A stretch of DNA of 64,000 bases from Burkholderiales bacterium (GCA_023701005.1 JAMPXW010000001.1:143843-207842), one strand, 5' to 3'; counted from the stretch's first letter, positions 410 through 25,451 are shown. Notes: generated by a model from the sequence alone, not told the origin. Translations and numbers: made by a program.

Positions 410-1789
410 ATGAATTTAAAAGATTTAAAAAAAATAAAGATTCCAGATAAACCAGGAGTATATTTTTTCTTGAAAAACAAGCCTGCCTCGACTCGGCAAG
501 ACGGGGGAATATTATATATTGGTAAGGCAACCTCTTTGAAAGATAGAGTTAGAAGTTATTTTGGGAAAGACCCCGAAGAAAAGCAAGCTTTCTACGGGGC
601 AGGTTTAATAGAGAGTAGAGGGCCTTTAATAGTTAAAATGATTAAAGATGCTGATGAAGTTAAATGGCAAGAGACGGATAGTGTTTTGGAAGCTCTTATT
701 TTAGAAGCTTCTCTTATAAAAAAATATCAACCCAAATATAATACAAAAGAAAAATCTGACAGAAGCTTTAATTATGTTTGTATTACAAAAGAAAAAAAGA
801 TTGCAATAATTCGCGGAAGGAATATTAAAAAAATGGTTTTTGATAAAATATATGGGCCATTTCCTAATAATAGCCAGCTGCGAGAAGCTTTGAGAATTAT
901 AAGAAAAATATTCCCTTATTTTGAAGACAGAAAGAATACAAAAGGTAAAGATGAATTTTATAAACAAATAAAATTAGTGCCAGAAAATTTAATAGAAAAT
1001 AAAAATAATATTAAAAATATTAAATTACTTTTTGAAGGTAAAAAGAAAAAGATTTTTTTAAATTTAAAAAAAGAGATGAATTCTTTTGCAAAGAAGAGAG
1101 CCTTTGAAAAGGCTGGAGAAGTTAAAAGGCAAATTTTTGCACTTCAGCATATAAATGATGTGGCTTTAATAAAAAATAACATTAATGACTTCACAGGTAA
1201 AAAAATTTTTGACTCTGGATTTCTTATTGGAAACCCTGCAAGAGTTTCTTCTAATTTTTCGTCCCTGCGCCCTTCCCCTGAGTACAGAGGTGGGACCCTC
1301 GGGAAGCTCAAAATTAAAAGAAACTCTTGTAGGATAGAGGCTTATGATATTGCGCATATGGGTGGGAAAAACATAGTTGGTGTTATGGTGGTTTTAGTCG
1401 ATGGTGAAATAGAAAAAAGTGAATATAAAAAATTTAAAATAAAAAGCCAAAATAATACGCTTGCCCGCCGTGGTGGGAATGATATTGGAGCCTTGGAAGA
1501 AGTCTTAGAAAGACGTTTTAAACATAGAGAATGGCAATACCCCGATGTTGTTATAATGGATGGGGGAATAGCACAGATTAATTTAGCAAAAAGAATTCTA
1601 TCTAAAATAGATGAAAATATAAAGATAGTTTCTGTATTAAAAGACGAAAAACATAAAGCTAAAGCGATATTGGGGGACAAAACTATTGGTTTAAAATATA
1701 AGAAAGAAATTTTATTAGCCAATAGTGAAGCACATAGGTTTGCTATAAATTATCACAAAAAGTTACGTAATAAAAATTTTATAAAATAA
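410..1789 (+). CDS. uvrC: Excinuclease ABC subunit C, 459 aa, lacking the C-terminal (HhH)2 domain; carries two in-frame hairpin insertions
   Basis: N-terminal GIY-YIG (GVYFF...ILYIGKATSLKDRVRSYF...EALILEASLIKKYQPKYN), UVR motif (KAGEVKRQIFALQHI), RNase H-like endonuclease core (RIEAYDIAHMGG...VVIMDGG). It ends before any HhH motifs. Confidence 0.8.
   Translation: MNLKDLKKIKIPDKPGVYFFLKNKPASTRQDGGILYIGKATSLKDRVRSYFGKDPEEKQAFYGAGLIESRGPLIVKMIKDADEVKWQETDSVLEALILEASLIKKYQPKYNTKEKSDRSFNYVCITKEKKIAIIRGRNIKKMVFDKIYGPFPNNSQLREALRIIRKIFPYFEDRKNTKGKDEFYKQIKLVPENLIENKNNIKNIKLLFEGKKKKIFLNLKKEMNSFAKKRAFEKAGEVKRQIFALQHINDVALIKNNINDFTGKKIFDSGFLIGNPARVSSNFSSLRPSPEYRGGTLGKLKIKRNSCRIEAYDIAHMGGKNIVGVMVVLVDGEIEKSEYKKFKIKSQNNTLARRGGNDIGALEEVLERRFKHREWQYPDVVIMDGGIAQINLAKRILSKIDENIKIVSVLKDEKHKAKAILGDKTIGLKYKKEILLANSEAHRFAINYHKKLRNKNFIK
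571..605. repeat. Short hairpin element family B, copy 1 (ccccgaaGAaaagcaagcttTcTacggggcagg), in frame inside the uvrC GIY-YIG domain
   Basis: Near-identical 35-nt stretch with a ccccg/cgggg stem recurs at 28899-28934 in an intergenic spacer. It adds ~14 aa relative to canonical UvrC spacing between SYF and ETEAL. Confidence 0.55.
1253..1316. repeat. GC-rich palindromic element family A, copy 1 (aatttttcGtccctgcgcccttc...gggaccctcggg...aaaatt), in frame in uvrC
   Basis: Shares a tgcgcccttc...gggaccctc core and AT-rich inverted ends (aaaattttt) with copies at 24757-24818 and 25126-25199. A local GC island in an AT-rich gene. Encodes SSLRPSPEYRGGTLGKLKIK. Confidence 0.6.
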
Positions 1790-1799
1790 ATTAAATTAT

Positions 1800-2276
1800 A
1801 TGAAGAAACAAGAAAATATTTTAATAATAAATGATATAAGAAGTGTGACTAATGTGGGAGCGATGTTTCGTACGGCTGATGCTTGTGGTATTGAAAAGAT
1901 TTATTTAACAGGTTTTTCACCCACACCATTTGATAGATTCGGAAAGATTCGTAAAGATATGGCAAAGTCTGCATTAGGGGCAGAAAATTTTATAGCTTGG
2001 GAATATAAGAAAAATATTTTGCCACTTCTTAAAAAATTTAAAGAAGAAAAATATTTGATAATAGGGATAGAGCAAGATAAAAGATCTATAGATTATAAAA
2101 AAGTAAAAATAACAGAGAAGAATGTTTTTATTGTTGGGGCAGAAGTGACAGGTATACCAAAAAACATACTTCAAAAATGTGATGTAATAGCTGAAATACC
2201 AATGAGAGGAAAGAAAGAATCATTAAATGTTTCTGTTGCTTGTGGAATTGCTTTATTTAGAATTTTGAATATTTAA
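1800..2276 (+). CDS. SpoU/TrmH-family RNA 2'-O-methyltransferase (small, TrmL-like)
   Basis: 158 aa. SPOUT motifs NVGAMFRTADACG, IGIEQD, and C-terminal ESLNVSVACGIALF. Confidence 0.65.
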   Translation: MKKQENILIINDIRSVTNVGAMFRTADACGIEKIYLTGFSPTPFDRFGKIRKDMAKSALGAENFIAWEYKKNILPLLKKFKEEKYLIIGIEQDKRSIDYKKVKITEKNVFIVGAEVTGIPKNILQKCDVIAEIPMRGKKESLNVSVACGIALFRILNI

Positions 2277-2277
2277 A

Positions 2278-3129
2278 TTACTTCATTAAAAGTAGCCCGA
2301 CTAGAGCTATAAGACTACCAAGAATTTTTATTGACAAGTCCTCACGTTCTTTTAAAAAGATAGCTCCTGCTATAAAAATGATGACTACTTTAAAAGTTGT
2401 TATGGCTGAAACTAAACTTAAATTTCCGACGACAAAAATTAAAATTACCCATGACAATGATTGAAGAAAGCGAAGTACTCCTGTAATGGTAATATCTTTT
2501 TTTGAATAAACGCTTTTATTGTGTGTAATTAAAGTAATTAAACCTAAAAAAATACATTGAGCCCACCAGCTAAACATTATTCCTGCTGTAAAACCTGTTA
2601 TTTTCATTAAAGCTCGTTCTGCAACAAGACAAACTCCAAGCATCACACCAGAAAGAATCATAAATATAAAATATCTATCAAATTTGAATTTTCCAATTTT
2701 GTGTTTCTTGGATACAATCAACATGCCGATAAGTAATAATACTGTTCCTAATATCTGAATCAAAGTGAGTTTTTCATTTAGAAATATTGTAGCAAGTACT
2801 ATAGTTATTGGTGTATAAATATTACTAATTAATGAACTTACTCCAGCTTCAACATGTTTTTGAGCGATATATGAGAAAATGAAATATCCAGCACCAAATA
2901 ATCCACAGACCAAAGAAAGTCCGATAAGATAATAAATATTACCTTGGATGTAAAAAGGTTCGAAAAGCGGTAATAATAAACTTAAAATGACAGTAATAAA
3001 TGTTACCTGAAATGCAAAATGTATTTGTCCTTCATTGTCTATATTCTTTTTTGTTGCCAACCATCTGCGCTGTAGTGGTGATGCGCTTGCCGCGACAAAA
3101 TAAAATATATAACTAAAAAATATTAGCAT
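2278..3129 (-). CDS. EamA/DMT-family membrane transporter
   Basis: 283 aa, ~10 hydrophobic helices in two 5-TM halves, with the ALMK/Y..AQK style typical of EamA. Confidence 0.5.
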   Translation of the reverse strand: MLIFFSYIFYFVAASASPLQRRWLATKKNIDNEGQIHFAFQVTFITVILSLLLPLFEPFYIQGNIYYLIGLSLVCGLFGAGYFIFSYIAQKHVEAGVSSLISNIYTPITIVLATIFLNEKLTLIQILGTVLLLIGMLIVSKKHKIGKFKFDRYFIFMILSGVMLGVCLVAERALMKITGFTAGIMFSWWAQCIFLGLITLITHNKSVYSKKDITITGVLRFLQSLSWVILIFVVGNLSLVSAITTFKVVIIFIAGAIFLKEREDLSIKILGSLIALVGLLLMK

Positions 3130-3166
3130 ATTAGCATTTTACACCTTTTTAGAGTATTTTCATATT

Positions 3167-4012
3167 TCATTTTTGATGAATATTGCAAAAATGGGCGCTT
3201 CTGCCGTTTATAATTTTTCTTAAGATTATTCCTTTGCAGTTTTTCTTTTTACATTTTTCTCCGGTTCTTCTGTAGGCTTTGTGGTGAAGTTGAAATTCTC
3301 CTTTTTCTCCAAAAACATTTATATAGTCAGACATTGAATCTCCCCCGAAATCTATTCCTTTAGATAATATTTCTCTTAATGCTTTAAACATTGTTTTGAA
3401 CTCGGATGGTTTTATTTTTGATATTTTTCTTTCTGGGTGCATCCCAATACGCCAAAGTATTTCATCTGAATAAATATTACCGATTCCAGCTATGATGGAT
3501 TGATCCATTAATACTGTCTTTATTTTGCCTTTAGGTTTTTTCTCTAAAGCTTTTTTAAATTTATCTTCATTAAAATTTTTATCTAATGGCTCAGGGCCTA
3601 GGTGTTTTAGATGAGTAGAATCGTGTATTGTGTTAGTATTTATCAAAGTTATTTTCCCAAATTTTCGAGCATCAGAAAAGGCTAGAAAATTATTTTTTGA
3701 TAAATAGAAAAGTACATGTACAAATTTATCTTTGTTGTTGAAAAGTAAATGACCTGTCATTTTCATGTGTACTAAGATAGTTTTATTGTTGTTTAAATTT
3801 ATGAGAATATTTTTTGCTCTTCTTTCTACTGAAAGTATTTTTTTATTTAAAACTTCTTTTTTAAAATACAGAAAAAATCTTGGATTAGCGATATTTCCAA
3901 TTTGACGTTTATCTTTGGTGTTTAGGTCTGTCCAAATTTCTTTTATAGTTAACCCCAAAATAGTTTTTTGGAGTCCACGAACTGTTGTCTCGACTTCTGG
4001 TAATTCAGGCAT
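3167..4012 (-). CDS. mutM: Formamidopyrimidine-DNA glycosylase (Fpg/MutM)
   Basis: N-terminus MPELPEVE, H2TH region, and a C-terminal zinc finger (C..C...C..C in ...HHKAYRRTGEKCKKKNCKGIILRKIINGRSAHFCNIHQK). Confidence 0.85.
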   Translation of the reverse strand: MPELPEVETTVRGLQKTILGLTIKEIWTDLNTKDKRQIGNIANPRFFLYFKKEVLNKKILSVERRAKNILINLNNNKTILVHMKMTGHLLFNNKDKFVHVLFYLSKNNFLAFSDARKFGKITLINTNTIHDSTHLKHLGPEPLDKNFNEDKFKKALEKKPKGKIKTVLMDQSIIAGIGNIYSDEILWRIGMHPERKISKIKPSEFKTMFKALREILSKGIDFGGDSMSDYINVFGEKGEFQLHHKAYRRTGEKCKKKNCKGIILRKIINGRSAHFCNIHQK

Positions 4013-4013
4013 T

Positions 4014-4592
4014 CTATTTATTAGCTAATATTTTCAAAGCCTCACGGATTTTAGTATTTGTGTTTGCTTCAGAAGAAACTTCTTTTAAAGCTTCACGAGC
4101 TTCATTTTGTGAATATCCTAGTGATTTTAATGCTTCTAAGGCATCTAATTCATCTCGAAGGGAAGTACTGCCTTTTTCTTCTGTATTTTTATTTTGCATT
4201 TTATCCCGCAGTTCTATTATAATTTTTTCTGCTGTCTTTTTCCCAATGCCAGATATTTTAGTTAAATAAGCTATATCTCCTGTACTTATAGCTCTTTTTA
4301 ATGTTTCTATAGGGGCGACACCTAGCACACCGAGGGCTCCTTTGGGTCCTATCCCAGATACGTTTATAAGCATTTCAAAAAATTCTAATTCTTCTCTATC
4401 TAAAAAACCGTAAAGATCTAAAATATCTTCTCTTACGTGTGTATGAATCCAAAATAATACAGCCTCTTTTGTATTTTTTAGTTTAGATAAAGTATCAGGG
4501 GAGATGCTTATCTTGTATCCTACTCCACCAGTCTCAACTATGATGAATTTATCATTTTTGAATGTTATTTGTCCCTTTACGCTTCCGATCAT
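4014..4592 (-). CDS. ruvA: Holliday junction DNA helicase subunit RuvA
   Basis: MIGSVKG...ETGGVGYKISIS; HhH motifs LINVSGIGPKGALGVL and ISGIGKKTAEKII; C-terminal domain III. Start taken at the internal ATG (MIGS) rather than the longest ORF. Confidence 0.85.
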   Translation of the reverse strand: MIGSVKGQITFKNDKFIIVETGGVGYKISISPDTLSKLKNTKEAVLFWIHTHVREDILDLYGFLDREELEFFEMLINVSGIGPKGALGVLGVAPIETLKRAISTGDIAYLTKISGIGKKTAEKIIIELRDKMQNKNTEEKGSTSLRDELDALEALKSLGYSQNEAREALKEVSSEANTNTKIREALKILANK

Positions 4593-4620
4593 GAGAATAT
4601 TATAGCATTTATAATTTTTA

Positions 4621-5802
4621 TTATTGAAGAGGTGGACAAATTGTTTTCGAGGCTGTGTTCCCAGCGTATCCAGTTTCATTTATACACCAATATCCATCTG
4701 AAATGGGGGCTATTATAGAATAAGTATCTTTTGAGTCTTTACAATTTAGAGTTGTTAATTTTGTTATACTTTTTATCGCGTTAAGGTATTCATTTGATTT
4801 ACAAAACCCATAATAAGAATTTGATTTCTCATAATAAATCTCTGCGGATGCTCTTGTGCTAGAGAGAGGCTCTTTTATTGTTGCATCCTTTAGATAATCT
4901 TGGGTTTTGTTTGATTTAGCTAATAGAGTTTTAATCGCTGATGGTATGCTGTTTTTATTGATTATAAATGATTTAATTATTTTTTCTATTTGATCTATCC
5001 TATTTTTATCATTTGTTTTTGAAATGACATTAAATATAATACTTAATTTTGTATTATTATAAGTACCTAAGTCTATTACGTAAATAAAAGTGTAAATATT
5101 TGGAAGTTCTTTTTGCAGGTAGATATATTTATATGATGGATGTGTATTAATATCTTCAAAAGAATTTTTTGGAGAGTATTTTTCTATAGAATATTTGTTT
5201 AGCATGATGTCATTAACATCAGTAATGATAGAAATTATAGGATAATCGTCCCATTGACGGATGGTTAAAAGAGCTAAATCATATAAAGAGTTTGTTTGTT
5301 GTTTATCGATTTCTGCCCCTGCTGGATAACTGAAAGAATAAAGTCCATTTATATCGTTATAGACACTTAAAGATGGATCTGTCACTTTGATTTCTTGAGT
5401 ATTTGGAATTATATTATTTTGTTGCTCGGCAGGGGTGGTTGTTTGTATGTTGTTATCTTGGGTTGGTGTTTCCGACAACACTGTTGTATCCCTATTTACA
5501 AATAAATTTTTAATAATAGATGAATCTAATAAGTCGTCTTTTAAATAATAAACAGAAACGCCAGCTATTAATAAAAATAGTATTAATACAATCCAAAATA
5601 TTTTTTTACCAAAATGATTATCAATTTTTGTGATTGATGGTTGTGGTTGAAAAGTTTGTTGCTGAGTTTTAGTAACATCAAATCCTTCTTCTATGTCTTG
5701 GTGGGTCCATCCATTAGCTAATAAATCGCTAGTTATTTTTTCTTTAATTATGCCTACTTGTAATTGTTGTTTAATAAAATTTACTAATTGCTGATTAATC
5801 AT
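4621..5802 (-). CDS. Hypothetical membrane-anchored protein (one N-proximal TM helix, large extracytoplasmic domain, C-terminal Cys-containing region)
   Basis: 393-aa ORF. TM IFWIVLILFLLIAGVSVYY. No recognisable catalytic motif. Confidence 0.4.
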   Translation of the reverse strand: MINQQLVNFIKQQLQVGIIKEKITSDLLANGWTHQDIEEGFDVTKTQQQTFQPQPSITKIDNHFGKKIFWIVLILFLLIAGVSVYYLKDDLLDSSIIKNLFVNRDTTVLSETPTQDNNIQTTTPAEQQNNIIPNTQEIKVTDPSLSVYNDINGLYSFSYPAGAEIDKQQTNSLYDLALLTIRQWDDYPIISIITDVNDIMLNKYSIEKYSPKNSFEDINTHPSYKYIYLQKELPNIYTFIYVIDLGTYNNTKLSIIFNVISKTNDKNRIDQIEKIIKSFIINKNSIPSAIKTLLAKSNKTQDYLKDATIKEPLSSTRASAEIYYEKSNSYYGFCKSNEYLNAIKSITKLTTLNCKDSKDTYSIIAPISDGYWCINETGYAGNTASKTICPPLQ

Positions 5803-5865
5803 AATTAATAGTATATTACTTTAATTTTTGTAATACTAGTAAAAGAAAACTATTTAAGAAAAATA

Positions 5866-5894
5866 TTGCATTTTTGTGACTTTTCTGTTATATT
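5866..5894 (+). promoter_or_regulatory. Sigma70-like promoter of rpsT (TTGCAT-17-TATATT); transcript would be leaderless or nearly so
   Basis: ttgcat at 5866-5871, 17-nt spacer, tatatt at 5889-5894. The rpsT ATG at 5901 lies ~7 nt after the -10, and no SD is possible. Confidence 0.45.
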
Positions 5895-5900
5895 ACATCA

Positions 5901-6152
5901 ATGCCAATAATTAAATCAGCTAAAAAAGCTATACGTAGTTCTCTTCGCAAGAAGGCTTTTAATGATCGTCAAAAGCATGCGATGAAGGATATAATAAAGA
6001 AGATTCAAAAGACTGCTAAAACAGACAAGAAAGCAGCAGAGAAACTTTTAAGTACTGCATATGCTGTGATTGATAAGACAGCAAAGAAGGGTGTTATAAA
6101 GAAAAATAATGCTTCTCGAAAGAAATCTCGTTTAACAAGATTAGTAAAATAA
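5901..6152 (+). CDS. rpsT: 30S ribosomal protein S20
   Basis: MPIIKSAKKAIRSS.RK...N..KHAMKD, basic and 83 aa; typical S20. Confidence 0.85.
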   Translation: MPIIKSAKKAIRSSLRKKAFNDRQKHAMKDIIKKIQKTAKTDKKAAEKLLSTAYAVIDKTAKKGVIKKNNASRKKSRLTRLVK

Positions 6153-6154
6153 AA

Positions 6155-6183
6155 CAAAAAAGCCCCGCAAGGGGCTTTTTTGT
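6155..6183. terminator. Rho-independent terminator (agccccgcaaggggct + T-run); bidirectional between rpsT (+) and csp (-)
   Basis: Perfect GC hairpin followed by ttttttg on the plus strand and preceded by aaaaaa (T-run for the minus strand). Confidence 0.75.
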
Positions 6184-6197
6184 TGTGAAGTTAAATA

Positions 6198-6395
6198 CTA
6201 TGCACGTTGTACGTTTGTAGCATTTAATCCCTTTGGGGATTCTTCTGTTTCGAAAGAAACAGCATCGCCTTCATGTAGCTCGTCGAAGCTTACTCCTACG
6301 AGGGAATTACTATGAAAGAATAAATCTTTCTGTAAACCTTCTCCTACGATGAATCCGAAACCTTTATCAGTTAGTCTTTTTATTGTACCAGTCAT
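6198..6395 (-). CDS. Cold-shock protein (CspA family)
   Basis: MTGTIKRLTDKGFGFI...DLFFH; RNP1/RNP2 motifs; 65 aa. A ~100-nt upstream untranslated region (6396-6500) is consistent with a csp leader. Confidence 0.85.
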   Translation of the reverse strand: MTGTIKRLTDKGFGFIVGEGLQKDLFFHSNSLVGVSFDELHEGDAVSFETEESPKGLNATNVQRA

Positions 6396-6513
6396 TGATT
6401 TTTTTGTTAGATTGTTAAATACAAATAGATAAACTCGAGATCGACTCTTTTCGCACCTACTTTGTTTATTAAGTATGGTATATTAAAGTCTTTTTGTCAA
6501 TCCAAGCAACAAT

Positions 6514-7185
6514 TTAGGATTTTGGATTATTTATTAGATATAAAAAGGTAGATAGTTCTTCGCCTTTTATTTCTTTTAATCCGTTAAGTTTTAGATTACC
6601 TAATTTAATATTCATTATTCTTTCTCGTTTTAGATCTCCTACTTCTTGAAAAAGATTTGAACACATTCTTCTTATTTGGTGTTTTTTCCCTTCAGTTAAT
6701 ATTATTCTGAAAGTATTTTCATTTAATATTGTGACTTTACATTTTTTTGTTAAGTAGCCTTCAATGTTTACACCAGCTTCCATTTTTTGTTTGAAATTTG
6801 AACGTAATTTTTCTTTTGTTCTAACGACGTATTCTTTTTCATGAATATATTTAGGATTCAATAATTTATCCGTAATGCGTCCATCATCAGTCAATATCAT
6901 AAGGCCATGAGAATTTTTGTCTAATCTTCCGAGAGGGAATAGCCCTTCTTTTGGGGAATTGGTTTCTATTCCTATTGGTTTATTGTAAGCAAAGTAAGAA
7001 TACTTTTTTTCCTTTACTCCTTTTACCTCTACCTTATCTCCTTCATTTACTTTGCTTCCAAGGATGGCTAGTTTGCCATTTATAAATACCTTTTTTTCTT
7101 CAATTAAAACATCAGCTCCTTTCCTAGTAGATATGTTTTTAAGAGCTAAATATTTGTTTATCCTCATTGGATATTCGGTATCCAT
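6514..7185 (-). CDS. RsuA/RluB-family rRNA pseudouridine synthase with N-terminal S4 domain
   Basis: S4 domain (RINKYLALKNISTRKGADVLIEEKKVFINGK), catalytic YFAYNKP...LFPLGRLDKNSHGLMILTDDG. Start chosen at MDTEY; MRINKYL is an alternative. Confidence 0.7.
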   Translation of the reverse strand: MDTEYPMRINKYLALKNISTRKGADVLIEEKKVFINGKLAILGSKVNEGDKVEVKGVKEKKYSYFAYNKPIGIETNSPKEGLFPLGRLDKNSHGLMILTDDGRITDKLLNPKYIHEKEYVVRTKEKLRSNFKQKMEAGVNIEGYLTKKCKVTILNENTFRIILTEGKKHQIRRMCSNLFQEVGDLKRERIMNIKLGNLKLNGLKEIKGEELSTFLYLINNPKS

Positions 7186-7186
7186 T

Positions 7187-17110: not shown

Positions 17111-17114
17111 TGGA

Positions 17115-17675: not shown

Positions 17676-17978
17676 GTCTTTTTTAAAAATTATTTATTTA
17701 GAATGAAATCAAAAGATTTCAATAATTTTTTTGTTTCAATTGTCGAGTCTATCGGCAATTTAGGGAATGTGTTTTGGAGATAATTTTTCATCTCCTTAAA
17801 AGAAATATTTTCTCTCTTTTTCTTCCCAAAAAATTTTATAAAAATTTTTTTTATCATATGAAACGACCTCCTTGTCGTTTTTATTTTGATGTACTAATTT
17901 TTTATTTATTCTATCTAAATGATAACACCTACAATGCATGTTTGTCAACAATTATGAAATTTAATTTGTGACCCCGGT

Positions 17979-18050
17979 AGGAATCGAACCTACATCATAA
18001 CTTCCGCAAAGTTACGTCCTATCCATTGAACGACGGGGCCTTTTGTTTGT
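17979..18050 (-). tRNA. tRNA-Arg (anticodon GCG)
   Basis: Cloverleaf readable by eye: acceptor GGCCCCG/CGGGGTC; D-loop AATGGATA with A20; anticodon loop TTGCGGA; T-arm GTAGG-TTCGATT-CCTAC; discriminator A. Confidence 0.7.
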
Positions 18051-18099
18051 CTAGATGTTAGACAATTGAAGGTTAACAGTTTTTAAGAAAAAATTCAAA

Positions 18100-18567
18100 T
18101 TAGAAATCTAAAAATTCCATTATCTTTTCAGATACGTGTTCTTTTATTTCTTCTTCTTTTACTTCATTGAAAGTCATAAAGTTGTGAACTTCTTCTACTA
18201 GGGTAGGATCTATCGGCATGGAGATTATAGGCATAAACAACCTTTCTGATTTTATGAATAAGGTAGGTTTGTCTGTATCTCTTTTAATCCAAAAAGCTTT
18301 TATATTTTTGTAAGGGAACAGTCTATTTCTTATTTTTAATCCTTTTTCATTAACTTCATAAAAAACCAAGTCTGGTTTTTTGATAGCAAATAAAGTAAGT
18401 AAAAAACCTCCGATTATTAAAAATAATCCAAAGAAATAATTTTTGTAAATGAAAGAAGTTATTGAACTTGCAACGACGATAACACCAAGAGCCCAGAACC
18501 AATCATTGCCTCGTTCTTTTTCTTCATATTCAAGCGCGGTCCATTCTAGTTTTCTATTTGGATCCAT
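18100..18567 (-). CDS. Small membrane protein with two N-terminal TM helices and a bacterial PH-like (bPH_2/DUF304-type) C-terminal domain
   Basis: WFWALGVIVVASSITSFIY / FFGLFLIIGGFLLTLFAI, then YEVNEKGLKIRNRLFPYKNIKAFW..TLFIKSE. Confidence 0.45.
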   Translation of the reverse strand: MDPNRKLEWTALEYEEKERGNDWFWALGVIVVASSITSFIYKNYFFGLFLIIGGFLLTLFAIKKPDLVFYEVNEKGLKIRNRLFPYKNIKAFWIKRDTDKPTLFIKSERLFMPIISMPIDPTLVEEVHNFMTFNEVKEEEIKEHVSEKIMEFLDF

Positions 18568-19120
18568 TAGTATAATTATACTAACCTTTAATATTTAATG
18601 CAAAAATATTGGAATTTTGTATTATTAATTTTTGTAGTGTTTGCCTTGGTAAACAAAGAATGCTAGATTGTTTTTATCGTTCTTTGACTTATGGGTACAA
18701 GAAATTGGATATGGAGAATCTGCCTGATATTATCTGTTTATGTTGATATTTAAACAGTATGTCTACTCAATTAAATTGAGTTTAGGGAACAGAGATTCTG
18801 ACTGTATACATAACAAGCACTATTTCTGCTTATGGAGCCATTGATAAATAGTGTGTATACTTACGATTAACTAATTTCTCGGGGCCAACAAATTAAACAG
18901 ATTAGTTGCCAATATTACAAAAAGAACTCTCGTTTATTTTAAACCATAGAGTTTGAAAAAAAACGGCAACAGAGAGCTCCTTTAAAAGGAGCTCTTACTA
19001 TTTATATATTTTGAGTTTTAAATATTTGCGGGTCACTCGGGTTCAGCACCAGGATGGTGAGACACTGTAAGGGTCGTTTGGGATAATTTTAGAGACTAAG
19101 CAGAGGGATGTGCGTCTATG

Positions 19121-19927
19121 CTAATTTATTGGTACTAAATTAAAAACTTCTTTTATGGTATCGAGCTTAAATAAGATACCTAGCCCAATCCACTTAATAG
19201 GTATTTTCTGTTTTTCTTTTTCCTCTGCAACAGTCTCAACTTCTGTAAAATCTAAATAAGAAAATGTTGATTCTGCAATTATTCCAAGAAGTTTATACTT
19301 ACCATTATGGCTTACAAAAACAGGACTTCCGCTTGACCCTGGAAACACTTGAGCATCAATCAATAGCTGTCTTTTTCCATTAAAGTTTATGTCTGGAATA
19401 CTAGAAATATTACCATTTCTAAAAATTGGTAGAAAATTTTTGCGATCGTAGAATCCTGTAGGATAACCTACGAAAACTATATTCTGACCACAATACAAAT
19501 CTTCATTTTTATAATCTGAGAATTCATCTAACTTTAAACTTCTCATATTTAGTGGAATTTCTGGAAAATTATAAGCCGCTGATATATCAAGACATCCAAC
19601 ATCAACTTCTTTGTCTGGATGGTCAAAATACAATTTACCATCCCTTTCTATCTCTATTTGAAACTTGTGAGTTTCTCCTAGTTTAAATGTTCCATCTTTT
19701 TCTGCCTTATGTACAGTTATTAATATTTTCTTTTTTATTCCCTCTAAATTTTTATCTTTCTTTCCAAAAAAAACATGCTTGTTTGAAAAAAGTAGCTGTT
19801 TAATTCTATTATTACCTATGTCCTTTGTTATTAAAAACCCTGTACCAAATTCTTTATCATCAATATTTTCTATCAATACTGTGTTAAAAAATACTTGCTC
19901 TTCAAATTTGTTAAATTGGACTGACAT
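19121..19927 (-). CDS. Cytoplasmic trypsin-like (chymotrypsin-fold, S1-type) serine protease
   Basis: His/Asp/Ser triad candidates (FSNKHVF; VDVGCLD; GSSGSPVF). No signal peptide or TM helix. Confidence 0.6.
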   Translation of the reverse strand: MSVQFNKFEEQVFFNTVLIENIDDKEFGTGFLITKDIGNNRIKQLLFSNKHVFFGKKDKNLEGIKKKILITVHKAEKDGTFKLGETHKFQIEIERDGKLYFDHPDKEVDVGCLDISAAYNFPEIPLNMRSLKLDEFSDYKNEDLYCGQNIVFVGYPTGFYDRKNFLPIFRNGNISSIPDINFNGKRQLLIDAQVFPGSSGSPVFVSHNGKYKLLGIIAESTFSYLDFTEVETVAEEKEKQKIPIKWIGLGILFKLDTIKEVFNLVPIN

Positions 19928-19996
19928 ACAACAAATTATAGCTTAAATATAATAAATTAAGTAGTGAGTCTACTCCGGTACTTTATTTTTAAGGGC

Positions 19997-20080
19997 GGAG
20001 GTGGTGAGATTCGAACTCACGGTCCCTTTCAGGACTTCGGTTTTCAAGACCGATGCACTAAGCCTCTATGCGACACCTCC
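19997..20080 (-). tRNA. tRNA-Ser (anticodon TGA), long variable arm
   Basis: Acceptor GGAGGTG/CACCTCC; anticodon loop CTTGAAA; extra arm AGTCCTGAAAGGGACC; T-arm GTGAGTTCGAATCTCAC; discriminator G. Confidence 0.8.
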
Positions 20081-20113
20081 CAGTAGTTGGTTCAATTCAA
20101 TATACCTTTTATC

Positions 20114-20599
20114 TTAAAAATTTTCAATCTTTTTTGTTAACCAACTTTTTTCTAAAAGATGTTCTTCCGCATGACAATTTGGACAAATTAACTCTAGATT
20201 TTCAATTTCATTATTTTTTCGATTTCGATTTTTGTGATGTACTTCTAAAATTTGGTATTTGTCATAATTACATTTTTCACATTTTTTGCCTTTTTCTTTT
20301 AATAGTTTTATTTTTAAAGCTCTTTGAGATTTTACTTTATCATTGGGGCTGTTTATTTTATATTGTATACCTTTTCTATGGATGTTGGCACAACTTCTAC
20401 TACAAGTTTTTTTGTTTAATCCAGCTAATATTAATTTTTTGCACACAACACAAGGAGTTTCTTTTCTGTTAGATAAACCATAACAATTCATACTACAAAA
20501 AACTCTTCCACTATTTTTTTGAATTTCAATAGGTCTTCTATAAATAGGGTAGGAGCAAATGATGCAATTTGTATTTGGATTTCTTTTATACTCATCCAC
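20114..20599 (-). CDS. HNH endonuclease with three N-terminal CxxC zinc-ribbon repeats
   Basis: C-terminal HNH: CEKCNYDKYQILEVHHKNRNRKNN..NLELICPNCHAEEH. N-terminal repeats C..C...(F)CS..C. Confidence 0.7.
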   Translation of the reverse strand: MDEYKRNPNTNCIICSYPIYRRPIEIQKNSGRVFCSMNCYGLSNRKETPCVVCKKLILAGLNKKTCSRSCANIHRKGIQYKINSPNDKVKSQRALKIKLLKEKGKKCEKCNYDKYQILEVHHKNRNRKNNEIENLELICPNCHAEEHLLEKSWLTKKIENF

Positions 20600-20682
20600 T
20601 AATCCAGTATACCATAAATAAAATATATATCACAAAATTAAAATGCTCAGTTTTAGTGAGCATTTTAATTTTGAAAGTTAAG

Positions 20683-20943
20683 TTATTCTATATTTTCTGT
20701 TTTCTTTGTAGAGATGGGGCCCGTCAATACTTCTTTTACGTCACTCCATTTCTTTTTTGCTATATAGAAAACATAAAATATTTCTAATATACCGAAAGTA
20801 TTTAATATTAAAATTATTATGAACCATTTCTTTTGGTCATTTTTTACAGCCAGCCATAAAGAATAACCTTTCCAAAATAAAGTCCATATGATAATAATTG
20901 GGAAAGTCCAACTATTTATTGATGCTAATCCAAATTGTTCCAT
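20683..20943 (-). CDS. Small two-TM membrane protein (Trp-rich; PLDc_N-like small membrane domain possible)
   Basis: MEQFGLASINSWTFPIIIIWTLFWKGYSLWLAV...WFIIILILNTFGILEIFYVFYIAKKKW. Confidence 0.35.
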   Translation of the reverse strand: MEQFGLASINSWTFPIIIIWTLFWKGYSLWLAVKNDQKKWFIIILILNTFGILEIFYVFYIAKKKWSDVKEVLTGPISTKKTENIE

Positions 20944-20987
20944 ATATAAATTATACCAGAAGTAAAATTTTGTGCTAGTATCATAAT

Positions 20988-21431
20988 ATGAGATTTTTAG
21001 GGATAGATTATGGAACAAAAAGGATAGGTATTGCTATTTCTGACGAAAATGGAAGTTTGGCTTTTCCGAAAGAAATTATTTTCAATGATGAAAATACCTT
21101 AAGAAAGATTAAAGATATAATAAAAAAAGAGAACATAGAAGAACTTGTGATAGGAGAGTCTGTAGATTTTTCAGGAAAGTTAAACATCCTTTCGGCTAGG
21201 ATTGATATCTTTATTTCTGAACTTAAAGATAATTTTGATTTACCTATTAATAAACAAAAAGAGTTTTTAACTTCAATGGAGGCTCGCAAGGCAGGTGATA
21301 ATAAAAGGACATTGAGTCAATCTCAGGTACATAGTAAAGTTAAACAAAAAAAGAGTGGAAGAGTGGACGCTAGTGCTGCGGCATTAATTTTACAAAGATA
21401 TTTAGATAAGATTAATAATTTAAAAAAATAA
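20988..21431 (+). CDS. ruvX: Holliday junction resolvase-like RuvX/YqgF
   Basis: MRFLGIDYGTKRIGIAISD... (RNase H-like YqgF signature) and ..ELVIGESVD..G. Confidence 0.8.
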   Translation: MRFLGIDYGTKRIGIAISDENGSLAFPKEIIFNDENTLRKIKDIIKKENIEELVIGESVDFSGKLNILSARIDIFISELKDNFDLPINKQKEFLTSMEARKAGDNKRTLSQSQVHSKVKQKKSGRVDASAAALILQRYLDKINNLKK

Positions 21432-21432
21432 A

Positions 21433-21801
21433 ATGATAAATTATGAAGATTTTAAAAAAATAGATATTGCTGTCGGTAAGATTTTATCAGCAGAAAAGAT
21501 ACCAGATACAGATAAGTTGCTTAAATTGAGTGTAGATATGGGGCCTCTGATTACAGAGGGGCCAGATGGTATGAAAGAAGAAAAGAGAGACATAAGACAG
21601 ATTGTTTCAGGCATTTCTTTATATTTTCCTGATTGTTCTTTGTTGGTGGGGAGGAAATGTATGTTTGTTGCTAATCTAGAGCCCAGAGTTATTCGTGGTT
21701 TTGAAAGTCAAGGTATGATATTGGCTGTCTCTACATCAGATAATAAGTTTTCTTTGCTTTCACCGAATGACGATATTCCCGAAGGCTCTCGTGCTAGATA
21801 A
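21433..21801 (+). CDS. tRNA-binding domain protein (CsaA/Trbp111/EMAP-like OB fold)
   Basis: FKKIDIAVGKILSAEKIPDTDKLLKLSVDMG...RQIVSGISLYF....LVGRKCMFVANLEPRVIRGFESQGMILA. Confidence 0.65.
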   Translation: MINYEDFKKIDIAVGKILSAEKIPDTDKLLKLSVDMGPLITEGPDGMKEEKRDIRQIVSGISLYFPDCSLLVGRKCMFVANLEPRVIRGFESQGMILAVSTSDNKFSLLSPNDDIPEGSRAR

Positions 21802-21841
21802 AATGATAGCAGTAATATGAAGTATATTGTATAATATTCTT

Positions 21842-22924
21842 ATGTTAAAGAATTTTTCTGATAGGTTTTTCCCAACACCAAAATTTCTTGCAGTACCTTC
21901 TTTCGGTTTAGATATATCTGATGAATCAATAAAATTTATAGAGCTTCTTAACAAGAGGAGTTCTGTTACTGTGCATCGATATGGAGAAAAAAAGATCCCT
22001 GCTGGTGTTATTGATTCAGGTAAAATAAAAGATAAGAAGAAAATGGAAGAGATATTGATAGCTCTTTCAAAAGAAGAGGGAATAAAATCTGTTAGAGTTT
22101 CTCTTCCAGAAGAGCAAGTTTATTTATTTAATCTTAGATTAGAAAAAGCAGGATTAGAAAATGTAAAAGAAAGCATAGAGCTTTCATTGGAAGAATACAT
22201 ACCGATTCCTGCCCCAGATGCTATTTTTGATTACGAAATCTTAAGTGAAGATGAAAAGAGTTTAAAATTACAAGTGGCGGCAATTCCTAAGAATGTCATC
22301 GAAGACTATCTTTCGGTTTTCAAAAATTCATCAATTTCAGTAAAGTCTTTTGAACTAGAAGCGCAAGCTATCTCTAGGGCAGTTGTAAAAAAGGGGGACT
22401 CGAGTACTTATATGATTGTAGATTTTGGTAAGAAACGCACGGGAATTTTTATTGTTTCAAATGGAATTGTCATTTTTACATCTACGTTGGATGTCGGAGG
22501 GACATTGCTAACTAATATGATAGAAAAGAATTTCAAAATAAGTTTTGAAGAAGCAGAAAAGAAAAAGATTGAATGTGGTCTAAAAAGAAATTCTAAAAAC
22601 ACGGAGATATTTTCTGTTCTTTTGAATGGAGTTTCTATTTTGCGTGATGAAATAGTAAAACATTTTTTATATTGGCATACTCACAAAGACGAAGAAGGCA
22701 GAGATAGGCCACCTATTGAGAAAGTTATTTTATGTGGAGGAGATTCAAATTTGGTAGGTCTTTCTGATTATTTATCTGTGAGTATGAAGACAAAAGCAGA
22801 GATGGGTAATGTTTGGATAAATATTACAAATACAGGTGAAGACATACCAGAGATAAGTTTTGATGAGTCTTTAACCTTTGCGACGGCTGTAGGTTTAGCA
22901 TTAGGAGATTTTGAATATGATTAA
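21842..22924 (+). CDS. pilM: Type IV pilus assembly ATPase-like protein PilM
   Basis: Actin-like fold start FGLDISDESIKFIEL; second half ..VDFGKKRTGIFIV..G; gene order pilM-pilN-pilO with overlaps. Confidence 0.7.
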   Translation: MLKNFSDRFFPTPKFLAVPSFGLDISDESIKFIELLNKRSSVTVHRYGEKKIPAGVIDSGKIKDKKKMEEILIALSKEEGIKSVRVSLPEEQVYLFNLRLEKAGLENVKESIELSLEEYIPIPAPDAIFDYEILSEDEKSLKLQVAAIPKNVIEDYLSVFKNSSISVKSFELEAQAISRAVVKKGDSSTYMIVDFGKKRTGIFIVSNGIVIFTSTLDVGGTLLTNMIEKNFKISFEEAEKKKIECGLKRNSKNTEIFSVLLNGVSILRDEIVKHFLYWHTHKDEEGRDRPPIEKVILCGGDSNLVGLSDYLSVSMKTKAEMGNVWINITNTGEDIPEISFDESLTFATAVGLALGDFEYD

Positions 22925-23459
22925 TTTAATCCCAAACAAAGAAAAAAGAGAAATGTCTAAAGAGTTTTATTTTAGACTAATTGCACTTACATTTTTAATG
23001 TTAGGTATTTCTTTGCTAGTTTTTTCTATTCTTATTTTACCTTCTTATCTACTTGCTTCATCTAGTAGGGTTTCTTTTTTAAATAAATTAGAGGAACAAA
23101 AGAAAGAAATTATTCCTTTACCTGACCAAAATACAATTTTAGTTATTAAAAATTTAAAAAATAAAATAAATTTGATTGAAACTACTGAAAAAAATAAAAA
23201 AATTTTTTCACAAAGAATATTAAATGAGATAATTCTAAAAAAGATACCGAATATTAAAATTACAGAAATTATTTATAAAAATGATATGAAAGAAGGAGAG
23301 AAGATAAGTATTTCAGGAAGAGCTTCTAGTCGTGAGGTGTTGTTGTCTTTTAGGAGAACACTGGAGGATAATCCTGCTTTTTCAAAGGTAGATTTGCCGA
23401 TCTCTAATTTTATAAAGGGTTCTAATATAAGATTTTATTTAACCTTGATACCATCATAA
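22911..23459 (+). CDS. pilN: Type IV pilus assembly protein PilN-like (single TM + periplasmic domain)
   Basis: Cytoplasmic INLIPNKEK..., TM LIALTFLMLGISLLVFSILILP; position after pilM with a 14-nt overlap. Confidence 0.55.
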   Translation: MNMINLIPNKEKREMSKEFYFRLIALTFLMLGISLLVFSILILPSYLLASSSRVSFLNKLEEQKKEIIPLPDQNTILVIKNLKNKINLIETTEKNKKIFSQRILNEIILKKIPNIKITEIIYKNDMKEGEKISISGRASSREVLLSFRRTLEDNPAFSKVDLPISNFIKGSNIRFYLTLIPS

Positions 23460-23465
23460 AATTAT

Positions 23466-23990
23466 ATGCAATTTATAAATCAAAAAAAATACTTAATATT
23501 GTCCATCGTATTCTTTTTGTTTTTTTGTGCTACATCTGTATTTTTGTATCAAAAAACGAAGGACTATAACAAAGAAGCTCTTGCCTTGCAGGAAGAATGG
23601 CAGACAGAGAATATTCGTAGAGAAAATGTTAAATATCTTTCTAGTTCTGTAAAAACGATACAAAGGGAGATCACTTCACTAGAAAGTCATTTTGTTAAGA
23701 GTTCTGATGTTGTACCTTTTTTAGATACAATTGAGAAGTTGGCAAATGAGGTAAATTTAAAATCAGAGATTTCATCTGTTGATGTAAATAAGATGAGTCC
23801 CGCCCTCATGATTGAAATGAGGGTGCAGGGTAGTTTTGAAAATATTTATAAATTGATAAGACTTTTGGAACATTCACAATATGAACTAGAATTTGTTTCT
23901 ATTAATATACAAGAGATGGAGAATTCTACTGGGAAAGTTCCTCAATGGAATGCAGCTTTAATGATAAAGCTTTTAAGTTTTGAGATCTAA
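23466..23990 (+). CDS. pilO: Type IV pilus assembly protein PilO-like
   Basis: N-terminal TM YLILSIVFFLFFCATSVFLY, coiled-coil, C-terminal alpha/beta segment; position. Confidence 0.5.
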   Translation: MQFINQKKYLILSIVFFLFFCATSVFLYQKTKDYNKEALALQEEWQTENIRRENVKYLSSSVKTIQREITSLESHFVKSSDVVPFLDTIEKLANEVNLKSEISSVDVNKMSPALMIEMRVQGSFENIYKLIRLLEHSQYELEFVSINIQEMENSTGKVPQWNAALMIKLLSFEI

Positions 23991-24306
23991 TTTTATGAAT
24001 ATAAATATAGAGTTTTTAAAAAAGAAAAAGAAATTTACAAAAGGAGACTCTAAATTGAGGCCAGATTTGTATTGGAGGTATATTCTCTTGGTGACTTTTG
24101 TCCTAATCACGCTCTCTTTTGTTTTTGGTTTTTTCCTCTTTTTAGATGTGACTAAAGATAGAGATTTTTCAACTATAAGCGTAAACGAAAGGGATACTTT
24201 AAAGAAAGAGAAAATAAATTCTGCGCTTCTTTATTTTAAAGAAAGAGAAAATAAATCAAATGAGATTCTGAATTCTCCTTCTATGGTTATTGACCCATCG
24301 TTATAA
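23980..24306 (+). CDS. Hypothetical single-TM protein following pilO (possible further pilus assembly component)
   Basis: 108 aa; TM ILLVTFVLITLSFVFGFFLFL; overlaps the pilO stop. Confidence 0.35.
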   Translation: MRSNFMNINIEFLKKKKKFTKGDSKLRPDLYWRYILLVTFVLITLSFVFGFFLFLDVTKDRDFSTISVNERDTLKKEKINSALLYFKERENKSNEILNSPSMVIDPSL

Positions 24307-24407
24307 AAATGTTAATTTAGATAGGTATTTGTTTGCGTGATTAGCTAAGTTGTAGCGACTTCCGTGAAATGCACTTTTGTAAGAAAAGTAATATGTAAAT
24401 ATATTTT

Positions 24408-24480
24408 GCGCGGTTAGCTCAGTTGGTAGAGCAACCCGTTTACACCGGGAAGGTCGTAGGTTCGAGTCCTACACCGCGCA
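24408..24480 (+). tRNA. tRNA-Val (anticodon TAC)
   Basis: GCGCGGT acceptor; D-arm AGCTCAGTTGGTAGAGC; anticodon loop TTTACAC; T-arm GTAGGTTCGAGTCCTAC; discriminator A. Confidence 0.85.
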
Positions 24481-24486
24481 CTAGCT

Positions 24487-24558
24487 GCCTTCGTAGTTCA
24501 ATGGATAGAACAGAGCTCTTCTAAGGCTTTGATGTAGGTTCGATTCCTACCGAAGGCA
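24487..24558 (+). tRNA. tRNA-Arg (anticodon TCT)
   Basis: GCCTTCG acceptor; D-loop AATGGATA (A20); anticodon loop CTTCTAA; T-arm GTAGGTTCGATTCCTAC; discriminator A. 6 nt after tRNA-Val. Confidence 0.8.
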
Positions 24559-24566
24559 CAAATAAA

Positions 24567-25451
24567 ATGACGTCAAAAATAAAGATTTTATATGAAGATA
24601 AAGATGTATTGGTTATAGATAAGCCATCAGGTATTTCTGTCCATCCAGATGGAAAGACAAAAGAAAAAACTATTTCTGATTGGTTTTTTAAAAAATATCC
24701 AAAATCAAAAAATGTTGGAGAGCCTATAAAAATATCAAAGACTTCGGAAGAAGTTCAAAATTTTTCCTCCTGCGCCCTTCCTCGAGTACGAGTTGGGGCC
24801 CTCGGAGATAAAAATTTTGAATTTCTTCCTCGTCCAGGTATTGTGCATAGATTAGATAAAGAAACTTCCGGGGTTTTAATTTTGGTAAAAAATCAGACAG
24901 CTTATGAATTTTTAAAAAACCAATTTAAAAATAGAGAAATAAAGAAAGTTTACAACACTGTCGTTTTGGGATCTGTAAAGAATGATCGTGGGGTGATTAG
25001 AAAACCAATTGGCAGAAGTGGTAATGATTTTCGTAAAAGATTAGCAGGGCGTGGGGCAAGAGGGGAGCTCAGAGAGGCTGTCACAGAATATACTGTCGTG
25101 AAGAGATTTCAGGATGAATGTGCACAAAATTTTTCCTCTTGCGCCCTTCTTCGGGCGCAAAAAGGGAAACAAAGTGGGACCCTCAGAGATAAAAATTTTG
25201 TGCACACTCATCCTTACACTTATTTAGAAGTACGTCCCAAGACAGGACGCACTCATCAGATCCGTGTTCATATGAAATTTATAAATCATTCTGTAGTTAA
25301 TGATTCACTTTATAATCCCAATCAGCCACACCCAAAAGGTTTTATTAGGTTAGCTCTACATGCAAAATCTATAGAATTTAAGGATCTAAAGGGTAATCTG
25401 CATAAGATAGAATCTGCTTTGCCAAAAGAGTTTCAAAAAGTGTTAAAATAA
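24567..25451 (+). CDS. RluA-family pseudouridine synthase (RluD/RluC-like) carrying two in-frame palindromic-element insertions
   Basis: LVIDKPSGISVHP; catalytic HRLDKETSGVLILVKN; C-terminal TGRTHQIRVHM. Insert-encoded peptides NFSSCALPRVRVGALGDKNF and NFSSCALLRAQKGKQSGTLRDKNF interrupt conserved blocks. Confidence 0.8.
   Translation: MTSKIKILYEDKDVLVIDKPSGISVHPDGKTKEKTISDWFFKKYPKSKNVGEPIKISKTSEEVQNFSSCALPRVRVGALGDKNFEFLPRPGIVHRLDKETSGVLILVKNQTAYEFLKNQFKNREIKKVYNTVVLGSVKNDRGVIRKPIGRSGNDFRKRLAGRGARGELREAVTEYTVVKRFQDECAQNFSSCALLRAQKGKQSGTLRDKNFVHTHPYTYLEVRPKTGRTHQIRVHMKFINHSVVNDSLYNPNQPHPKGFIRLALHAKSIEFKDLKGNLHKIESALPKEFQKVLK
24757..24818. repeat. Palindromic element family A, copy 2 (caaaatttttcctcctgcgcccttcctcgag...ggggccctcggagataaaaatttt)
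   Basis: Terminal inverted repeats aaaatttttcctc / gagataaaaatttt; GC-rich core; in frame in the RluA gene. Confidence 0.65.
25126..25199. repeat. Palindromic element family A, copy 3 (caaaatttttcctcttgcgcccttcttcgggcgc...gggaccctcagagataaaaatttt)
   Basis: Same ends and core as copy 2; internal perfect hairpin gcgccc-ttcttc-gggcgc; in frame in the RluA gene. Confidence 0.65.

Follow-up and report, generated by a model that had tools for sequence, protein, structure and literature searches.

GC-rich palindromic elements with host-derived arms in housekeeping genes of Parcubacteria-group Patescibacteria

We describe a family of GC-rich palindromic elements, three copies of which lie in a 64,000-nucleotide stretch of DNA (GCA_023701005.1 JAMPXW010000001.1:143843-207842; hereafter the window), within uvrC and within a gene for a pseudouridine synthase of the RluA/RluD family. 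The element is repeated across genomes and host genes, remains in frame where it lies in a gene, is present or absent at orthologous sites, and has arms that are complementary at the DNA level and derived from host sequence. We favour, with a probability of about 75%, the reading that it is a small, non-autonomous GC-rich palindromic insertion element with host-derived arms, spreading within and between genomes of Parcubacteria-group Patescibacteria (Nomurabacteria/Paceibacteria). By this reading the element would be selfish DNA, and an enzyme that recognises it may exist.

Copies in the window and anatomy of the element

The three elements are among the sharpest GC spikes of the window, which is AT-rich (32.5% GC overall). 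They stand, with the core described for them, where the first-pass annotation of this sequence had placed them, and they coincide exactly with the three longest spaced inverted repeats of the window. Their length had been put at 65–75 bp; the inverted repeats reach further, and the full hairpins measure 99, 84 and 104 nt. The copies and their host genes are:

1235–1333, + strand: copy 1, full hairpin of 99 nt in the UvrC linker, arms 92% complementary; core 1266–1302 (37-nt subtype), conserved inner unit ~1250–1318, locus-specific arms 1235–1258 and 1310–1333
24746–24829, + strand: copy 2, full hairpin of 84 nt at RluA site 1, arms 95% complementary; core 24771–24805 (35-nt subtype)
25111–25214, + strand: copy 3, full hairpin of 104 nt at RluA site 2, arms 96% complementary; core 25140–25186 (47-nt subtype)
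~1199–1225, + strand: decayed remnant of an older copy of the 47-nt subtype, its left half, directly upstream of copy 1
410–1789, + strand: host gene uvrC, 459 aa, with Pfam GIY-YIG and UvrC_RNaseH_dom, 100% identical to P0001
24567–25451, + strand: host gene of the RluA/RluD-family pseudouridine synthase, 294 aa, with Pfam PseudoU_synth_2 and PDB matches to RluD, RluC and RluA

Copy 1 is in frame in the uvrC open reading frame (ORF) and copies 2 and 3 in the RluA-family ORF, each leaving the reading frame intact, as had been noted; the net insertion is ~26–29 residues instead of the 20–25 first given. Within UvrC, copy 1 is read as ...NPARVSSNFSSLRPSPEYRGGTLGKLKIKRNSC..., and relative to copy 2 it carries +1/−1 indels, by which its middle is translated in another frame. 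The conservation is therefore at the level of the DNA and not of the peptide. Copy 2 lies immediately N-terminal of the GIVHRLD catalytic motif of the RluA-family protein, and the core of copy 3 contains the perfect internal GCGCCC/GGGCGC hairpin already remarked on. Folded as single-stranded DNA, copies 1, 2 and 3 have z scores of −5.3, −6.4 and −9.7. A covariance model trained on public copies together with copies 1 and 2 scored these at 79.7 bits (E=2.5e-21) and 80.9 bits, and it recovered copy 3, which had been held out, at E=2e-15. With its filters off, the model found no further copy in the window above the noise of AT tracts. The inverted-repeat pair I25 (6983–7061) was rejected as an element, being ordinary coding sequence. 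At 32480–32517, right after tRNA-His, a hairpin of AT tracts fits both arms of the model and lacks a core; it could be a footprint without its core or simply a terminator of the ordinary kind.

The half-copy at ~1199–1225 consists of an AT tract and a decayed half of the core, in which TGCGCCCTT has become TGGATTTCTT. It aligns with the intact left half, AAAATTTTTGGTCCTGCGCCCTTTAT, of the syntenic segment L080, and its peptide, GKKIFDSGF, corresponds to NKIFGPAPF / NKIFDPAPFFGR of the homologues P0004 and P0002.

The element has two invariant blocks, TGCGCCCTTC and TGGG(A/G)CCCTC(A/G)G, and the flanking tracts AAAATTTTT and AAAAATTTT. Followed from the outside in, the left half comprises a locus-specific outer arm, the A/T tract AAAATTTTT, about five subtype-specific bases and CC-TGCGCCCTT. 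The centre is a variable stem-loop (stem of 3–6 bp; loops such as AGTA, ATTA or TTCG), replaced in the 44–48-nt subtypes by a larger insert containing GGGCGC. The right half, from the inside out, runs through GTGGGACCCTCGG, about five bases and AAAAATTTT to the complementary outer arm, which mirrors the left flank. The internal loops of the core are conserved and asymmetric, with TGCG opposite ACCCTC. The inner ~60–80 nt are common to the copies, and the outermost ~10–25 nt of the stems differ from locus to locus: aligned copies have high positional information between −15 and +12 about the core and only the background level farther out, while the flanks stay complementary over a median of 31 nt per side, and over as much as ~60 nt in some copies. 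The AAAATTTT tracts, each its own reverse complement, are direct as well as inverted repeats. As to the AT-rich inverted termini reported earlier, such tracts do flank all copies, but they are not fixed transposon ends.

A heptamer, GCT(T/C)CGC, recurs in direct orientation at the fixed offsets −27/−28 and +20/+21 from the core in 19 of 104 public copies, and as an inverted pair in a few; its carriers (e.g. L010, L019, L044 and L104) include several core subtypes and unrelated host genes. It was rejected as a target-site duplication, since the arithmetic does not fit an in-frame duplication, despite the real fixed offsets.

Spread, turnover and host-derived arms

Further copies had been sought, and they were found. 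One genome per species of bacteria and archaea was scanned for the exact core with the pattern TGCGCCCTTC-N(8-38)-TGGGRCCCTCRG, which yielded 106 stretches: 102 in metagenome-assembled genomes (MAGs) with Patescibacteria-type labels or none, and four chance matches in GC-rich taxa. The carriers are 58 public assemblies with 1–7 exact copies each, and 103 exact-core copies in all besides those of the window. They are labelled Nomurabacteria (placed by NCBI in the Parcubacteria group of Patescibacteria), Paceibacterota, Patescibacteria group and Minisyncoccia, and there are also third-party annotation (TPA) assemblies labelled Saccharibacteria. A phage vector was rejected, the exact core having no match among viral contigs. 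The protein identical to the window's UvrC (P0001) is labelled 'Burkholderiales bacterium' at NCBI; a genome of the Parcubacteria group is indicated, despite that label, by all close homologues, by the GC content of 32.5% and by the element family, and the contig was probably mis-binned or mislabelled.

Well over half of the copies with full flanks (63 of 104) are placed well within ORFs of 150 aa or more, and 41 are non-coding, 14 of them just upstream of a start codon and 27 in short open stretches. Every one of the 63 keeps the frame and is free of stop codons in the frame used, and the non-coding copies occupy tight spacers between separate genes; none of the 44 other copies splits a gene. 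All three sense frames are in use among the intragenic copies (NFSSCALPRVRVGTLGDKNF; NFSSLRPSPEYRGGTLGKLKI; KIFDPAPFFGRIKGNKVGPSDTKI), and some of these are read in antisense (ILNPRGSHSEGEGRRGEKF; FELPEGPTPVLGGRAQGRKI). The host genes are unrelated and number at least a dozen. They include those for UvrC, RluA, a UvrD-like helicase, RecG, TGT, MnmA, Dus, a class-V aminotransferase, the formyltransferase Fmt and an FAD-linked oxidase, and two more look, by their motifs, like LeuRS and DNA polymerase I. The idea that the element is designed to be open in all six frames was rejected: only 6% of copies are, and the mean of 3.5 open frames out of 6, against a background of 2.3, is as expected from the GC content.

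Several intergenic copies have recurrent neighbours. An apparently orthologous site between a gene of 71–79 aa and one of ~320 aa carries a copy in at least eight species (L009, L016, L021, L028, L061, L071, L076, L079 and others); in L016, GAAGGAG forms part of the right arm just upstream of the start codon, and its complement is present in the left arm. Copies also stand directly 5' of infB (IF-2) in two species (L101 and L066:5714–5789), and L101, with copies at 3700–3790 and 5355–5445, has one downstream of infB as well. The left arm in L101 begins right after the stop codon of the preceding gene.

Comparison of orthologous sites revealed a variety of states. The UvrC linker, which lies between ALIK and RIEAYD, was compared in 120 homologues: nine have it empty, with 11 aa (e.g. 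KQENKKEKNLF), and the others have 16–53 aa. The non-empty linkers hold this element in several subtypes and frames, diverged relatives, half-copies, core-less remnants and compound or nested arrangements, of which that in the window is one, or alternatively one of about ten unrelated-looking peptide families. At RluA site 1, ~74 homologues have no insert (9 or 13 aa) and about a dozen are filled, two of them with antisense copies, and three proteins retain footprints without a core, such as SKNFQILL. RluA site 2 is empty (17 aa) in ~32 homologues and filled in more than 60, some of which have antisense cores within the same arms as the sense copies. Copy 2 is missing from the close relative P0122, with 13 aa there against 39 aa in the window, and copy 3 from the close relatives P0124 and P0125 (L085). 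Only the window and two close relatives have the 47-nt core of copy 3, and they have it inside arms that elsewhere hold a 35-nt core, which implies that one core has replaced another at this site. The filled UvrC and RluA orthologues keep the palindromic DNA signature, so the possibility raised by the first-pass annotation that the inserts are lineage-specific protein insertions fails. Two copies in one gene had been attributed to either a hotspot or selection; since the UvrC linker and both RluA sites have been reoccupied by differing subtypes, orientations and unrelated families, it is a hotspot.

The element has also been copied recently within genomes. In the assembly CALQYS01, a copy in the TGT gene (L027) and one in a 1173-aa ORF (L030) share a 65-nt inner unit that is 100% identical, between outer flanks that are unrelated. 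The same holds on average for same-genome pairs, with a mean identity of 83% in the inner unit and 34%, the chance level, in the outer arms.

The origin of the outer arms can be read from empty and filled alleles. Empty UvrC alleles have ...CTT CTG AAA CAG GAA AAT AAA AAA GAA AAA AAC TTA TTC AGA..., and the filled allele L108 has ...CTC CTG AAA CAA GAA AAT TTT T[core]A AAA ATT TTC TTG TTT CAG GAG..., which forms a perfect 22-bp stem. The left arm of L108 encodes the conserved L-L-K-Q-E-N that is found in the empty alleles too; its right arm is the reverse complement of the left arm, stands in place of the original codons and has no counterpart in the empty alleles. At RluA site 2, the empty CCA CAA AAA TTT corresponds to a filled GCA CAA AAT TTT, followed by the core and AAA AAT TTT GTG CAC ACT CAT CCT. 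At RluA site 1, the DNA for the left-arm peptide SEEVQNF gives, when read as its reverse complement, the right-arm KNFELLP, which is likewise without counterpart in the empty allele. In all three comparisons, one arm is the original host coding sequence and the other its reverse complement. The upstream flank is the original in each of these resolved cases.

In the host proteins the inserts map to the tips of loops, and the fold around them is predicted with confidence. The RluA-family protein of the window aligns with the solved RluD-like chain 11wx_A in three blocks: residues 187–216, which include copy 3, fall between the adjacent residues 155 and 156 of that chain, and residues 32–85, which include copy 2, match just 17 of its residues. 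An AlphaFold2 model built with 72 homologues (predicted template-modelling score, pTM, 0.79; mean predicted local distance difference test score, pLDDT, 82.6) has its lowest pLDDT, 46–47, at residues 61–80 (copy 2), and values of 55–61 at residues 151–170, a native loop, and at 191–210. The model places the core peptides at the tips of β-hairpins, with residues encoded by the arms in the strands. In UvrC, the insert occupies the linker immediately N-terminal of the endonuclease domain.

A possible route of propagation and the rival explanations

The following course of events would account for these states. The mobile unit would be the inner ~60–80 nt, which lands at junctions of A and T tracts, for example at the codons K-N-K-F. 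Either the insertion event or a later arm-to-arm correction would add an inverted copy of the adjacent host sequence, so that the stem extends into the gene and both arms are translated. The element would persist where it is in frame in a surface loop of a protein, or in an intergenic spacer. Later, the core can be deleted between the two AAAATTTT tracts, leaving a footprint, or it can be flipped, exchanged for another subtype, decayed or struck by a second insertion. Our best guess for the propagation itself is replicative template switching: a nascent strand would switch to another copy at the microhomology of AAAATTTT, copy the core, snap back to copy its own flank and rejoin its template. 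Either orientation of the core could result, given that AAAATTTT reads the same on both strands. Template-switch mutations are known to extend the identity between the arms of quasi-palindromes (PMC7202029, PMC3820800). More tentatively, we suggest a mode of mobility that dispenses with a transposase altogether, in which a GC-rich cassette moves by template switching at the palindromic AAAATTTT and, through an inverse copy of host coding sequence, makes the hairpin on which it lands. Such hairpins would then stand for long in the coding sequence of essential genes while cores cycle in and out of them, and the core might be recognised by a host or element-associated protein that has single-stranded hairpin DNA as its substrate during replication.

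Several observations weigh against a selfish insertion element that spreads in this way. A purely neutral palindrome would have no orientation bias, and yet the core strand is on the G-rich strand in 75 copies versus 15, the coding copies are 47 sense versus 16 antisense, and 34 of the 41 intergenic copies follow a co-oriented gene, the upstream gene lying on the element's TGCGCCC strand. The core is kept across species whose host proteins are ~60% identical, more than expected of a decaying selfish element, which could reflect function or homogenisation by gene conversion. Its asymmetric internal loops persist though arm-to-arm correction should erase them. The apparent invariance of the core is partly a matter of ascertainment, because the search pattern preset 22 core bases; independent support comes from an unbiased set of RluA orthologues, in which the core peptides are nearly invariant. 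Neither a transposase nor an autonomous parent was found, and no related insertion sequence (IS) was seen in ~800 kb of flanks; a candidate parent in L101, a 529-aa gene flanked by two copies, was rejected, as it is infB (IF-2). No regular direct repeat that would mark a target-site duplication was found, although AAAATTTT, as both a direct and an inverted repeat, could mask one. With regard to the arms, the place where the stem is to have its base holds a 7-bp inverted repeat, TTCTGAA/TTCAGAA, even in the empty UvrC allele, so part of the stem may pre-exist instead of being copied, and small pre-existing hairpins may be the targets of insertion. A proxy of arm origin based on A/T skew over the 63 coding copies is split 32 versus 27, and we do not claim a fixed polarity of copying despite the three cases out of three. 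That the insert peptides are translated we infer from frame conservation only. Lastly, template switching leaves the asymmetric loops, the 75:15 bias and the GCTYCGC motif unexplained. The strictly conserved asymmetric core and the bias suggest that some protein recognises the hairpin, perhaps on single-stranded DNA during replication.

A first rival explanation is a functional structured RNA, a cis-acting hairpin under selection for folding that serves as a nuclease-processing site, a protein-binding site or a terminator or stabiliser. The hairpins are stable, the asymmetric core is strongly conserved, the sense bias in genes and the position 3' of co-oriented genes are in accord, and several copies have A-run and T-run flanks that resemble bidirectional terminators. 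The pairing argues otherwise. In a covariance-model-based alignment of 106 copies, Watson-Crick or wobble pairs fill 96% of the pair cells (80% in shuffles). Changes on both sides are seen in 260 cells, with just 0–2 one-sided (G·U) changes per pair. In the outer arms of coding copies, taken in the mRNA sense, there are 20 G·U and 24 A·C mismatches, and transversion-type mismatches, at 79, are above both. Since G·U is nearly absent among the varying pairs and not in excess among the mismatches, the complementarity of the arms stems from DNA copying, and selection for RNA structure was rejected as its main cause. Moreover, the core occurs in either orientation at the same loop, copies are absent from close relatives, and footprints and half-copies exist. 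In a scan against Rfam 15, only tRNAs reached gathering scores and the element matched no family; permissive scans gave nothing but miRNA-precursor-like hairpin noise, at 17–22 bits against thresholds of 56–98. We therefore regard an RNA function as unlikely. A DNA-level signal of the host, such as a site for a chromosome-organising, replication or DNA-uptake protein that is tolerated in genes, is somewhat less probable again. It would suit the tracking of the G-rich strand, the sequence-specific recognition implied by the asymmetric core, and the finding that four of the six copies in genes apparently on the lagging strand are antisense, although GC skew over 8 kb cannot tell the direction of replication from that of transcription. 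Such a signal sits poorly with the low and variable number of copies per assembly, with their loss, truncation and nesting, and with the existence of several unrelated core families of the same architecture.

Two further explanations concern the fate of the peptide. The hairpins might go untranslated, by ribosome hopping as in phage T4 gene 60 and the mitochondrial 'byp' elements or by excision from the mRNA: they are GC-rich within AT-rich coding sequence, the matching codons AAT TTT ... AAT TTT are possible take-off and landing sites, and bypass inserts are known to be mobile (10.1101/2022.08.31.505936). Bypass or excision would, however, lift the constraint on frame, and all 63 intragenic copies are in frame and stop-free though only about half of the element's frames are open, while none of the other 44 interrupts a gene; we consider this explanation very improbable. 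The alternative that the inserts are lineage-specific protein loops selected for the function of their peptides draws on the recurrence of the same peptide at the same site in many orthologues. It is effectively refuted by the diversity of frames, as other genes have the same DNA in three frames and in antisense, and it also stands between genes; in addition, the peptides are predicted to be disordered loop tips, and empty alleles are common. We thus retain the insertion element with host-derived arms as the preferred reading.

Relation to known repeats, and other families

The behaviour proposed in the first-pass annotation, that of Rickettsia palindromic elements, is supported, with the refinement that the present elements are longer and their stems partly host-derived. 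Rickettsia palindromic elements are palindromic repeats of ~100–150 bp in a small AT-rich genome, of several families and with no known transposase; they stand in frame in unrelated housekeeping genes, at positions that suit the protein fold, and between genes (PMC10969869). They have been reported to lose repeat identity over time (PMC6649704). The elements described here are likewise stable hairpins, of 84–104 nt, occurring in frame in diverse genes and in intergenic regions (63 coding and 41 non-coding of 104), at surface-loop sites that appear compatible with the fold, judging by the alignment with 11wx_A and the low-pLDDT tips of the model. Rickettsia families have one conserved peptide each, whereas our core is read in three sense frames and in antisense; the outer stem here is locus-specific and host-copied, and the identity of the arms is renewed. 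As all carriers are Patescibacteria-type MAGs and the likeness is drawn from behaviour and not from sequence, our elements are at most an analogue of the Rickettsia palindromic elements and not a member of that group.

Other systems resemble parts of the element. The GC clusters of yeast mitochondria (e.g. GC42) are GC-rich palindromes in an AT-rich genome, with rapid turnover, merger of units and shuffling, loops that change more than stems, and transfer by recombination of the flanks; one lies inside var1/rps3 (PMC4478555). They differ in being organellar and mostly intergenic, with a putative AG target duplication, and host-derived inverted arms have not been described for them. The coding palindromes of nematomorph mitochondria are locus-specific inverted repeats with both arms translated, and the identity of their arms has been attributed to conversion or template switching, not to function (PMC6649704). 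Only our outer arms, being locus-specific, translated and identical at the DNA level, resemble them; nematomorph palindromes have no shared mobile core, have both arms in conserved protein regions, reach 284 bp and are organellar.

[quoted passage not shown] MITEs end in fixed terminal inverted repeats, come with target-site duplications and are related to an IS element, and REPs are extragenic and linked to RAYT transposases. Unlike MITEs, the present element has no fixed ends, sharing only its AT tracts, with the outermost arms at chance identity (34%); unlike the extragenic REP/REPIN-RAYT systems, it has a majority of intragenic copies. Some bacterial repeats of these kinds (Correia, ERIC, BOX, REP/REPIN) do lie within genes or are co-transcribed (PMC10969869). 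Translational bypass inserts, as in T4 gene 60 and the Magnusiomyces mitochondrial byps, are mobile hairpin-forming inserts in coding sequence (10.1101/2022.08.31.505936; PMC6649704). They interrupt the frame and are skipped, whereas our elements are in frame and stop-free, and we found no split genes.

That such elements are not established in Patescibacteria had been surmised; full-text literature searches returned no description of them in Patescibacteria or the candidate phyla radiation (CPR), which is not proof of their absence. On the sequence data, the element appears to represent an undescribed family of mobile palindromes in Patescibacteria that behaves as a counterpart of the Rickettsia palindromic elements, with host-derived coding arms as the new feature. 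The same behaviour, in several families, in free-living or epibiotic ultra-small Patescibacteria points to a recurrent outcome in small AT-rich genomes. It also offers a larger comparative data set, in which the same loops can be seen empty, filled, flipped, nested or with a footprint in hundreds of MAGs, and the host-derived arms give a tangible lead, open to test, on the insertion and persistence of such elements. The inserts enlarge and diversify proteins in a lineage of minimal genomes, may mislead gene callers, alignments and marker-gene phylogenies, and flag loops that tolerate insertions of ~30 residues, all of which should interest those who work on mobile DNA and on the genomics of candidate phyla.

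Other core families with the same architecture exist in the same genomes, and the phenomenon is thus lineage-wide. Their copies are:

Second family: L046:6368–6477; L054:5773–5872; L098:6089–6175 and 6978–7072; L106:898–1007
Third family: L001:546–641 and 1808–1907; L032:3686–3784; L077:3461–3547
Fourth family, core GGGTGTCTCGCAGGCCGACGGGCCGAGAGGCAGCGCTG...: L015:985–1092; L054:6740–6876; L057:5927–6055

The second family has the core GGTCTGGCCGGG...CCCGG...GAACCGAGGACC and is built like the main family, with locus-specific arms, an AT tract and a GC-rich core; its copy in L046, read as KFSSGLAGVRGPGEPRTRENF, shares a UvrD-like gene with a main-family copy. The third, with the core GTCGTGGGTCCCCTGTCC...CCGAGGGCGAAGGCTC between AAAAATTTT tracts, has fragments of motifs in common with the main family and matches its covariance model weakly (27 bits); it may be a distant relative. 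In the fourth family, the ~30-bp arms of the L057 copy complement each other almost perfectly.

About ten other recurrent insert peptides, for example NSPHPSPLLGKERGNSNF, PLLVEEGVGGGDSKKNHFALKGTPPQKGG, FERTLGRSGDDGQRKFSAENFRGES, LRHSHSVLEGQVHSGRSEDS and ASPYVGGGAESGGG, occur in UvrC loops of different species (homologues P0005–P0120), in the linker and at positions ~20, ~120 and ~175 of the 394-aa form. In the window, a small GC-rich extra segment near the N-terminus of UvrC (479–508) encodes PASTRQDGG, and relatives have PASTRESLSTRGG or PASTRGDSSTRGG at or near this place. It was rejected as a structured element (z=−1.2, not significant) and may be a decayed remnant of another element. Directly 3' of the RluA-family gene, at 25456–27132, lies an ORF of 558 aa in which CxxC motifs are very abundant.

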